A stretch of 40,184 nucleotides of DNA from Candidatus Nanohaloarchaea archaeon. Lineage in GTDB: Archaea; Nanohalarchaeota; Nanosalinia; Nanosalinales; Nanosalinaceae. Each line of letters starts with the position of its first letter. Within the stretch, counting starts at the first letter, position 1. The stretch spans positions 1-40,184 of the forward strand of contig JAWOFP010000029.1 in the NCBI GenBank assembly GCA_046497485.1. The letters are read 5' to 3'. The translations under genes were made by a program, and so were the position numbers. This document shows positions 18,417-28,144 of this stretch, in pieces. A model generated the notes under the pieces. That model had not been told where the DNA came from. It did no database searches and was given only the letters and a program-made list of their open reading frames with translations.

Positions 18417-18821
18417 TTAAATCATATTCAAGGCCTTCAATGATTTGAGCTGGCCCATTGTCTCATGAGTTTTTAGTTCTTCCAAGGTAAGCCATTTGAA
18501 ATCAGAATGTTCATAATCTAGCTCTAATTCCTTATTATCAACTTCAATATGAAAAGGATAAATATTCCAGAGGCCTAGTTCTCCTTCTCCAATGTGGGAG
18601 TCTCCTAAATCGATTATTTCTCCTTTAAGACCTGTCTCTTCTTTCAGTTCGCGAAGGGCTGCTTCTTTTGCAGACTCTCCTTCTTCTATTTTTCCTCCTG
18701 GAAAAGTCCATTCGCCGGAGCTGGAGTTTTCCTGGCTTCTTTTCAGCAGTAGAAACTCTCCGTCTTTTTCTGGTACTGCTAATGCTACTTCGCCATTTAT
18801 CTCTCTTTCAGGCTTATCCAT
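18417..18821 (-). CDS. Nudix hydrolase (MutT-like)
   Basis: Nudix box GGKIEEGESAKEAALRELKEETGL. Confidence 0.93.
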   Translation of the reverse strand: MDKPEREINGEVALAVPEKDGEFLLLKRSQENSSSGEWTFPGGKIEEGESAKEAALRELKEETGLKGEIIDLGDSHIGEGELGLWNIYPFHIEVDNKELELDYEHSDFKWLTLEELKTHETMGQLKSLKALNMI

Positions 18822-18911
18822 GCTTTATTTCAGGTATTGAAGGTTTTTAGTTGTTTTTCAGAGCGTTATGGAACTAAAGATTTTTAAGTAGGGGGCGGCA
18901 ATTGTTAGATG

Positions 18912-19393
18912 AAAATGGCCCTAGTTGCTAATACTAAATGGCTGACCGGAAACATGTCCATGTCAATGGATCTGGTGAGACCTAGCTTTAACCATAGGGC
19001 CAAGACTAAATTCTCCATTATTAATTATCTGGCAGAGTAAAGCGGGATGAAGTCTTGGTCCGATTGGTGGACCAACGACCGACCGCGAATACTCAAAAAA
19101 TTACAAAAGCTTAGTTGACCTCTGCTTCTGCGGAACAGATTAGGTTAGAGGACAACTAGCAAGGGCAGGTCTGGCTTGCAAGGTGAGGCCTGCTCTTCGA
19201 CCCCTCTTATCAACGACTTAAACTTTGATAGATTAGAAGAGGTGCCAACCAAAAAATGAACGCCAACACACGCGACTTTGAAGCCGAACTTGAAGCACAG
19301 GACTTAGAGGTACGAGAAGCTCCTAAAGTTAATTCGGAAGCAGAAGTAGTTACAGCGACCGCTCTCTAAGAACATAAAAGCAGTGCTGCCAGA
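18912..19393 (+). ncRNA. Putative large structured RNA or structured leader, class unknown
   Basis: TTTTTAAG box at 18881-18888 followed by at least six helices (see findings) in an otherwise gene-dense region. Ends are approximate. Confidence 0.65.
19256..19369 (+). CDS. Unannotated 37-aa peptide inside the structured RNA
   Basis: GAGGTG SD at 19239-19244; MNANTRDFEAELEAQDLEVREAPKVNSEAEVVTATAL; acidic with host-like codon usage. Confidence 0.6.
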   Translation: MNANTRDFEAELEAQDLEVREAPKVNSEAEVVTATAL

Positions 19394-19426
19394 GAAAAAG
19401 GAAAGAATTCCTCCAGAGGAAAAGAT

Positions 19427-19903
19427 TTATTCCTGATTACTGTAGGCAGCAGACTCGAAAGCAGCCCAGCCGTTAGCCATAGAATCCAGTATCGAAGTAA
19501 AAGACTTAGCTGGCTTCACGACTTTTCGACGGCCTTGAGACCCTTCATTCGAATCACGATACTCCAAATATTCATACTGAATCACGCCTAGACGACGCAA
19601 CTTTGGCAAAATATTGTTCTTAAGATTTGACAGGCCTTTCTCATGACCCCATTCACCGAAATTATTTAATTTTTCTGAATCAATCTCTCCTTCAGCCTTT
19701 AATTCTCGCAGAAAGATTTTTGCGTACTTGTTCCGTTTCGGCGATTGTTCATGTGGGAAGAAAAGATCGACGAGTTTCTCCCAGTTCCAGGCCCTTTCAC
19801 TTAACTTGTATTTTTGTCTATCTTCAGGGATGGCTATAGAGTTTTTAGTTACAATAGTAGAGGTCTTTCGTGCTTCCTCATCTACAAATGGATGATCTGA
19901 CAT
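19427..19903 (-). CDS. Hypothetical protein, probable winged-helix DNA/RNA-binding fold
   Basis: 158 aa; NILPKLRRLGVIQY...GRRKVVK recognition helix and wing pattern; unusually non-acidic for this proteome. Confidence 0.75.
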   Translation of the reverse strand: MSDHPFVDEEARKTSTIVTKNSIAIPEDRQKYKLSERAWNWEKLVDLFFPHEQSPKRNKYAKIFLRELKAEGEIDSEKLNNFGEWGHEKGLSNLKNNILPKLRRLGVIQYEYLEYRDSNEGSQGRRKVVKPAKSFTSILDSMANGWAAFESAAYSNQE

Positions 19904-27955: not shown

Positions 27956-28060
27956 CTAAATTATTTTTACAGTTTCAGGCCTTTTAGGCATTTTAACTTG
28001 TCCCTCAGTTTGCTTGTCTGCCATTAGCTCAACTTCAAAATTTTTGGAATTTGCATCCAT
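27956..28060 (-). CDS. Putative 34-aa small protein
   Basis: Strong SD GAGGAGGCGA upstream; MDANSKNFEVELMADKQTEGQVKMPKRPETVKII. Confidence 0.45.
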   Translation of the reverse strand: MDANSKNFEVELMADKQTEGQVKMPKRPETVKII

Positions 28061-28063
28061 AAA

Positions 28064-28144
28064 TTAATCGCCTCCTCTTTGTGCTGCGGATTTTATCCAA
28101 GATTTCCCAGAAATGGCTTTCCTCTTGTTCAGCTTCTTAACCAT
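28064..28144 (-). CDS. Putative 26-aa basic peptide
   Basis: MVKKLNKRKAISGKSWIKSAAQRGGD; stops 3 nt before the next ATG. Confidence 0.3.
   Translation of the reverse strand: MVKKLNKRKAISGKSWIKSAAQRGGD

Follow-up and report, generated by a model that had tools for sequence, protein, structure and literature searches.

A conserved intergenic locus of nanohaloarchaea predicted to specify a folded RNA with two micro-open reading frames and a stop-adjacent kink-turn

Nanohaloarchaea are very small archaea that depend on a host and have genomes of about 1 Mb. In one of them, a 605-bp gap (positions 18822-19426) bounded by two minus-strand open reading frames (ORFs) raises the question of what such a gap encodes. 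The gap lies within positions 1 to 40,184 of contig JAWOFP010000029.1, from a Candidatus Nanohaloarchaea archaeon, and we refer to this whole stretch of 40,184 nucleotides (nt) as the window; the genome is 0.97 Mb and 97% complete. A preliminary description of the DNA had placed here a highly structured RNA with its own promoter, and had proposed either a new class of noncoding RNA (ncRNA) or a large regulatory leader. At a rough probability of 55%, we favor the explanation that the gap encodes one ∼0.5-kb plus-strand transcript that is at once a folded RNA and a two-cistron mRNA for micro-proteins, with a kink-turn (K-turn) next to the first stop codon, and that it acts as a translation-coupled L7Ae/K-turn switch. 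The locus is real, conserved, and apparently undescribed.

The gap is flanked on its left by a NUDIX gene (18417-18821) and on its right by a gene for a 158-amino-acid protein (19427-19903), both on the minus strand as first described, with the latter convergent to the RNA unit. A TATA-like promoter box (TTTTTAAG, 18881-18888, plus strand) is recognized by its sequence and conserved spacing, and such a box stands 30 to 40 nt upstream of the conserved ATG of the first reading frame, ORF-A, in 21/21 of the loci aligned (pattern matching identified it in 19, and visual inspection of the alignment in 2). The TATA-to-start distance usual in archaea was used to place the transcription start, which would fall near 18911 and leave a leader of about 4 nt. 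Because the ORF-A ATG follows the start of the box by 30 to 40 nt, and given the usual archaeal promoter geometry, the transcript is probably near-leaderless. The plus strand of 18881-19400 folds at -156.3 kcal/mol (z-score -3.41), a stability equaled by 0/100 shuffles, whereas the minus strand has a z-score of -2.15, equaled by 1/100 shuffles. The promoter, the plus-strand reading, and the highly structured, unannotated transcript of the preliminary description thus all stand. Searched with 361 nt of its DNA, the gap has matches in 22/41 genomes, its own counted, and in 19/24 genomes of the same family, at 69 to 83% DNA identity across genera. The window aligned with 20 loci shows the conserved TATA-like box, near-identical blocks, and two reading frames.

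ORF-A (18915-19040, plus strand; 41 codons plus TAA; MALVANTKWLTGNMSMSMDLVRPSFNHRAKTKFSIINYLAE) is near-leaderless and would encode a basic, weakly constrained peptide. Its frame is open in all 45 homologues with a complete 5' end, comprising 43/43 of an extended set, from which two further loci cut by contig ends were left out, and 2/2 read by eye. Eight distinct ORF-A lengths occur among 21 loci (108 to 132 nt including the stop), every one a multiple of three, and internal stops across these loci are found in 0/21 for frame 0, 20/21 for frame +1, and 21/21 for frame +2. The stop triplet is TAA in 33, TAG in 7, and TGA in 5 of 45 sequences. The ratio of nonsynonymous to synonymous differences (pN/pS) is 0.66, and the entropies at the three codon positions are 0.79/0.95/0.99 (38 codons, 43 sequences). 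The comparative signature of ORF-A translation is one of frame only; the frame and end point look more conserved than the peptide, and for this reason ORF-A may act mainly by being translated. A search of a 5.8-billion-protein set with ORF-A matched solely the window's own product, and none of the 21 ORF-A members searched against Pfam gave a match above the cut-off. A PDB profile match to eL13 (E 2e-4) consists of two 11-bit stretches of a duplicated segment with individual E values of 3.8 to 6.6 and was treated as chance; a search for the L13e family gave no match to ORF-A, though its controls were also silent.

The key element that had escaped the preliminary description is a K-turn abutting the first stop codon. 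The K-turn hairpin (19042-19086, plus strand) has its first base 1 nt past the ORF-A stop and consists of a canonical stem (C-stem) GCGG/CCGC, a GAU loop, G.A and A.G pairs (19049-50 with 19081-82), a noncanonical (NC) stem, and a variable loop. The GCGG/CCGC helix and the enclosed GTCTTGGTCC/GGACCAACGAC helix, both noticed earlier, together make up this hairpin. The GAGTA/TACTC extension that had been added below them is not kept in relatives, and its GAGUAA contains the stop codon. The C-stem is paired at all four positions in 45/45 sequences and covaries at two: positions -1 and -2 are G-C in 45/45, providing the canonical Watson-Crick pairs next to the bulge, while -3 is CG in 35, UG in 8, and UA in 2, and -4 is GC in 40, GU in 4, and AU in 1 (n=45). 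Among the same 45, the three-nucleotide bulge reads GAU 40 times and AAU 5 times, 1b.1n is G.A and 2b.2n is A.G without exception, and 3b.3n is mostly non-Watson-Crick (AC 22, CC 13, AU 4, UG 2, AG 2, CU 1, CG 1). In the NC stem, all 45 sequences pair at 4b.4n, and 5b.5n is CG in 34 of them and UA in 11; this stem beats all 5000 permutations in the cognate duplex test, in which the duplex energies of strands from the same genome are set against those of strands from different genomes. Over the whole hairpin, 91.9% of cells are paired and 10/13 pairs have changed on both sides, a count that 0/500 shuffles reach; with the partners slid, 31 to 42% of cells pair.

The third base of the ORF-A stop occupies K-turn position -6b in 45/45, 1 nt before the 4-bp C-stem, and the spacing between stop and K-turn is thus fixed. 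The genome encodes an L7Ae-family protein (PF01248, 97.5 bits). All the sequence features of a canonical L7Ae-type K-turn are present; the G.A and A.G pairs presumably adopt the sheared geometry, and L7Ae is predicted to bind. We note that in the most divergent genome (locus L071; G016:C1:120861-121824, reverse strand) the ORF-A stop is a UGA within the K-turn core GGGAUGA, and so, unlike at the other loci, it does not lie one base upstream of the C-stem.

A K-turn of this type directly behind a small gene could also be a selenocysteine insertion sequence (SECIS)-like recoding element, directing either selenocysteine insertion or stop readthrough. The AUGA...GA core immediately behind a small ORF fits that idea, as does the one genome in which the ORF-A stop is the UGA of that AUGA. 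However, neither ORF-A nor ORF-B, the second frame of the unit, has an in-frame UGA (0 internal stops), the ORF-A stop is TAA in 33/45, and the hairpin is 53 to 63 nt long and not a multiple of three, so there is no conserved readthrough frame. The best selenocysteine tRNA (tRNA-Sec) candidate in the genome scores 36.6 bits against a 47-bit cut-off, and the SECIS families have no match on the region at E<=10. We regard recoding as largely refuted and as the least probable of the explanations weighed here.

Much of ORF-A is also a folded domain (18916-19002, plus strand), as indicated by folding and by cognate duplex tests. Helix P1 joins 18916-23 with 18995-19002 and pairs the U and G of the ORF-A start codon; its cognate duplexes have an energy of -16.37 versus -14.30 for noncognate ones (0/5000 permutations), and compensatory variants are directly visible in the strand pairs. 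Within it, the covarying helix P2 (ACCGGA/TCTGGT) joins 18940-50 with 18971-82, at -14.47 versus -12.02 (0/5000 permutations). These permutation tests ignore phylogeny, and the significance of both values is overstated. Both helices had been recognized in the preliminary description; the TCCAT/ATGGA stem drawn inside them is an insert confined to a subset of the aligned loci.

The second frame, ORF-B (19256-19369, plus strand; 37 amino acids plus TAA; MNANTRDFEAELEAQDLEVREAPKVNSEAEVVTATAL), would encode an acidic micro-protein and is preceded by a Shine-Dalgarno sequence, GAGGUG (19239-19244, plus strand), complementary to the 16S 3' end (...GGAUCACCUCC) on contig C54. Its length is 37 to 38 amino acids in 20/20 loci, and it is intact in 44/44 (three of them with 36, 39, and 39 amino acids). 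With a pN/pS of 0.43 and codon-position entropies of 0.87/0.53/1.38, lowest at position 2, ORF-B has a normal coding signature, and the comparative evidence for its translation is strong. The start codon is ATG in 28 of the 44 loci, ATC in 8, ATT in 5, and ATA in 3. The 16 loci with non-ATG starts keep a GGUG box at Shine-Dalgarno-like spacing, and 14 of them have an in-frame GTG three codons upstream while 2 have none (read by eye); this pattern suggests near-cognate initiation or a shifted start. ORF-B has 39 representatives in a 1.84-billion-protein library, some of them with annotated N termini that are falsely extended, and belongs to no family in Pfam or NCBIfam. A tmRNA-like role for ORF-B, raised by the non-AUG start in some genomes and the ...ATAL end of the peptide, was dropped because the Shine-Dalgarno sequence has a normal spacing and nothing resembling a tRNA is present. 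We also note a second small two-ORF unit in the window (27956-28144, minus strand), with a 26-amino-acid basic ORF (28064-28144) followed directly by a 34-amino-acid ORF (27956-28060) whose N terminus (MDANSKNFEVEL...) resembles that of ORF-B; no K-turn is seen there, and several relatives likewise give weak second matches to the ORF-B profile.

The two frames bear on the suggestion that the transcript is a noncoding ribonucleoprotein (RNP) RNA, a partner of L7Ae and perhaps of the winged-helix-like product of the neighboring 158-amino-acid gene, with both frames untranslated. Five covarying helices and conserved loops, the DNA identity of 69 to 83% maintained across genera, the lack of an Rfam match, and the strict co-occurrence with a very conserved basic neighbor are what such an RNA might show. 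If the RNA were untranslated, though, we would not expect ORF-A to change in length by whole codons only and to stay open in 45/45, nor would we expect the third-position variation, fixed length, and Shine-Dalgarno sequence of ORF-B. We consider this explanation unlikely, and the new, purely noncoding class of the preliminary description does not hold, as about half of the transcript consists of two conserved small frames, one open in 45/45 and the other with a coding pattern.

The unit is represented in RNA libraries. Four sequencing runs were compared, three salt-lake metatranscriptome runs of one study and one run of a second study that is possibly DNA. Contigs from the three metatranscriptome runs lie entirely within the unit: a 364-nt contig (18924-19287) bridges ORF-A, the K-turn, two downstream hairpins (HP3 and HP4), and the start of ORF-B, and further contigs cover 18945-19206 (262 nt), 19087-19237 (151 nt), and 19233-19383 (151 nt). 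The run of the second study, which may be DNA, contains a relative at 90 to 95% identity. The contigs of runs X1, X2, and X4 do not reach the flanking genes and depths in X3 are uneven, and no expression ranking follows. The preliminary description had held that lack of both transcription and covariation would tell against an RNA; contigs in RNA libraries and covarying helices in homologues are both found.

An A-rich linker separates the K-turn hairpin from HP3 (19109-19160, plus strand), a variable stem with a large pyrimidine-rich apical region of two sequence types. The stem described earlier at 19109-23/19147-60 is retained as a hairpin in the predicted fold of each of 41 homologues, but its sequence varies. 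HP4 (19163-19195, plus strand) has a 10-bp covarying stem and a conserved 13-nt loop with the consensus UGCUUGCAAGGUG, to which 12/41 loops are identical; in relatives, CCGGAAC directly follows the hairpin. Its stem (19163-72/19186-95) has 389/410 cells paired, three to six pair types per position, and a cognate energy of -15.69 versus -8.03 (0/5000 permutations). This 10-bp stem lies within the 12-bp stem first proposed (19161-72/19186-97). A trans target of the HP4 loop was sought in its own genome, where no good complement was found and the only matches had 2 mismatches. The CUUGCAAGG core of the loop recurs in a palindromic CCCCUUGCAAGGGG hairpin on the plus strand of contig C54 near position 30, at the end of this rRNA-bearing contig.

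Three longer-range contacts were considered and rejected. Pairing of the HP3 loop with the ORF-B Shine-Dalgarno sequence gives -10.89 versus -10.85 (2174/5000) and no covariation. Evolved sequestration of the Shine-Dalgarno sequence is not found, its predicted pairing being 0.82 versus 0.83 with shuffled upstream sequence and the real value being higher in 19/41 genomes; the CCTCTT/AAGAGG hairpin (19203-42) of the preliminary description is not confirmed by these pairing values. A long-range stem between the end of ORF-A and the 3' side of ORF-B, proposed earlier as the closing stem (19028-35/19386-93), does not covary (-10.35 versus -10.26; 1883/5000).

How, then, might a reading frame and a K-turn work together? 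We propose that L7Ae binds the K-turn and that a ribosome at the ORF-A stop would have to accommodate the K-turn's 5' strand within its mRNA channel. Because a terminating ribosome would occupy this strand, translation of ORF-A and a folded, L7Ae-bound K-turn would be mutually exclusive. The RNA could then alternate between being translated and being a closed RNP in which P1, P2, and the K-turn are all formed, and this toggle would set the stability of the RNA, the output of ORF-B, or both. A bolder extension is that the locus would be the first case resolved in detail from a new class of archaeal micro-ORF/K-turn RNAs, in which the leaderless frame is itself the folded domain and ribosomes and L7Ae compete at the stop in an mRNA/RNP switch; this we put forward tentatively, as rather doubtful.

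Several observations weigh against the translation-coupled switch. Pairing of the start codon in P1 should hinder leaderless initiation, and ORF-A lacks the usual coding periodicity (0.79/0.95/0.99; pN/pS 0.66), so its peptide may be functionless. An alternative reading of the UAA/UAG/UGA variation of the stop is that purines vary in non-Watson-Crick pairs lying below the C-stem. The tests linking structure to ORF-B translation, namely those of the HP3 loop and of Shine-Dalgarno sequestration, are negative. Assembled contigs cannot show the ends, strand, or level of a transcript, and DNA carry-over is possible; the translation, the L7Ae binding, and the transcript ends put forward here are all deduced rather than directly evidenced.

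Some of these points suit a simpler arrangement, in which the transcript is the mRNA of ORF-B and its 5' leader comprises everything upstream. ORF-A would then regulate as an upstream ORF, with no part played by its peptide, and the K-turn would be a brake worked by L7Ae. A normal coding signature is found in ORF-B alone, conservation of ORF-A extends to frame and end point and not to peptide sequence, and L7Ae is described as repressing translation via K-turns in archaeal mRNA leaders (PMC5539422). On the other hand, ∼150 nt separate the K-turn from the Shine-Dalgarno sequence of ORF-B downstream, neither a covarying contact with that sequence nor its evolved sequestration is found, and the leader nucleotides are more conserved than ORF-B, which points to a role of their own. 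This arrangement is possible, and we think it less probable than a switch at the ORF-A stop. The large regulatory leader of the preliminary description is accordingly closer to the evidence than its ncRNA class, except that the 5' "leader" is itself a conserved reading frame, which we read as translated.

We also asked if the transcript could be a universal RNA, RNase P RNA or signal recognition particle (SRP) RNA, in divergent form. The preliminary description had seen no signature of SRP RNA, RNase P, tRNA, or riboswitches, and the searches agree: the whole window has no Rfam match at the gathering score, the region 18700-19550 gives only three chance-level rows at E<=10, 19 homologous loci give only three unrelated chance-level rows at E<=5, and ARAGORN reports no tRNA or tmRNA in the window. 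RNase P RNA was suspected from look-alikes of the conserved regions CR-I and CR-V, and the size (about 330 nt) and K-turn presumably recall the archaeal form. In addition, RNase P RNA (RF00373) is found at the gathering score neither in the window nor anywhere in the 97%-complete genome. Against this, the archaeal RNase P model (RNaseP_arch) has no match on the region at E<=10, the partner proteins Pop5, Rpp30, Rpp21, and Rpp29 were not found in the genome, P1 closes after ∼85 nt, and two frames occupy the RNA. A HARP-type protein-only RNase P is encoded at G000:C62:16700-17284 (PIN_5, 201.7 bits) and explains the missing RNase P RNA without this locus; we note that the genome may rely on HARP alone for RNase P. 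SRP RNA (RF01857) is encoded on another contig (C59:2023-2304, 105 bits) and has no match in the region. A divergent universal RNA is thus very improbable. A C/D box or H/ACA guide small RNA (sRNA) was likewise rejected, since by inspection there is a single K-turn with hairpin-joined strands, spacers of guide length and a pocket are absent, and no ACA is conserved 3' of the stem; no Rfam guide-RNA family is found in the region.

The distribution of the locus was followed through five families, labeled f1 to f5 and represented by 49, 1, 10, 8, and 1 genomes, respectively. The K-turn model (R1) matches 45/49 genomes of f1, 1/10 of f3, and none of f2 (0/1), f4 (0/8), or f5 (0/1), with exactly one match per positive genome. 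The ORF-B profile gives 45/49 in f1, 1/10 in f3, 0/1 in f2, a weak match (E 4e-4) in 1/8 of f4, and 0/1 in f5, and the convergent 158-amino-acid neighbor is present in 44/49 of f1, 1/10 of f3, 0/1 of f2, 0/8 of f4, and 0/1 of f5. The four f1 genomes that lack R1, ORF-B, and the neighbor alike are 72 to 85% complete. By these counts, the RNA unit belongs to the core of one nanohaloarchaeal family, f1, in which it is single-copy. The single f3 match (G039) is on a 2.5-kb contig and may also reflect mis-binning, as is likely for the only two named records with ORF-B that are not nanohaloarchaeal, a contig of a metagenome-assembled genome labeled Colwellia polaris and a 2.9-kb contig labeled Asbonarchaeaceae (L108 and L125).

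Synteny is conserved in the order RNase_H_2-like gene, RNA unit, 158-amino-acid neighbor, and insertion of the NUDIX gene is limited to the genus of the source organism. The neighbor always adjoins the RNA unit, and its phyletic distribution matches that of the RNA. It is basic, with 88% mean column identity, and is 74 to 97% identical across genera, compared with about 60 to 70% for the RNase_H_2-like gene. It belongs to no family in Pfam or NCBIfam, and its structural model (mean predicted local distance difference test [pLDDT] of 62.7) shows weak similarity in fold to PadR, MarR, and TFE-alpha (best E 0.011), making it weakly winged-helix-like. The neighbor may be a partner or regulator of the RNA; prediction of a complex between it and the ORF-B product scored 0.00, which carries no weight either way.

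A single-copy, unannotated locus that is better conserved than most nanohaloarchaeal proteins and is present in RNA libraries is probably important to nanohaloarchaea, and with it the core gene set of the family gains two micro-proteins and a K-turn RNA. Its coding sequence is under a double constraint of reading frame and covarying helices, and a stop codon one base from a K-turn offers a concrete case for possible coupling between termination and an RNA-binding protein in archaea. In DPANN genomes, a search for leaderless micro-ORFs should precede any labeling of "ORF-free structured gaps" as ncRNAs.

A literature search found nothing on K-turns abutting small-ORF stop codons in archaea and nothing on nanohaloarchaeal structured RNAs. 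We compare the locus with four kinds of known systems. SECIS elements of eukaryotes and Asgard archaea are K-turn hairpins with an AUGA/GA core, and the hairpin described here resembles them in having that core just behind a small coding region; it differs in that there is no UGA recoding, no tRNA-Sec above the cut-off, and no Rfam SECIS match. Dual-function RNAs, of which RNAIII/hld and SgrS/SgrT are examples, are like this locus short, strongly structured, conserved transcripts encoding proteins of <50 amino acids. Such dual-function or small-protein RNAs are described in bacteria and, as spRNAs, in Methanosarcina mazei (PMC12612679, PMC12310071, and bioRxiv 10.1101/2025.10.28.685009). The nanohaloarchaeal transcript departs from them in having two ORFs rather than one, and a K-turn as well, and in having a coding sequence that forms covarying helices pairing its own start codon; no base-pairing target was found for it, the HP4 loop being without a good complement in the genome.

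One RNA described from nanohaloarchaea is STRG.4577.1, a 266-nt conserved intergenic sRNA from a halite metatranscriptome, for which no function is given (Gelsinger et al. 2020, PMC7002113). By description, both are expressed, conserved, intergenic nanohaloarchaeal RNAs of similar size, and STRG.4577.1 may or may not be the RNA of this locus. Parallels to the proposed mechanism are the archaeal l7ae and nop5-fibrillarin transcripts, for which translational control by L7Ae and K-turns is described (Daume et al. 2017, PMC5539422), and the K-turns in archaeal mRNA leaders that are operated by L7Ae (Huang et al. 2019, PMC6298567). As in those mRNAs, a canonical K-turn is present here in an mRNA and not in rRNA or a guide RNA, L7Ae is encoded, and a protein-operated switch is plausible. 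Unlike in the l7ae and nop5-fibrillarin transcripts, the genes here are not L7Ae partners, and binding by L7Ae is predicted. Finally, in contrast to the L7Ae-controlled leaders, in which the K-turn is in the 5' untranslated region, the K-turn here lies between two cistrons, one base past the stop codon of a putatively leaderless micro-ORF.

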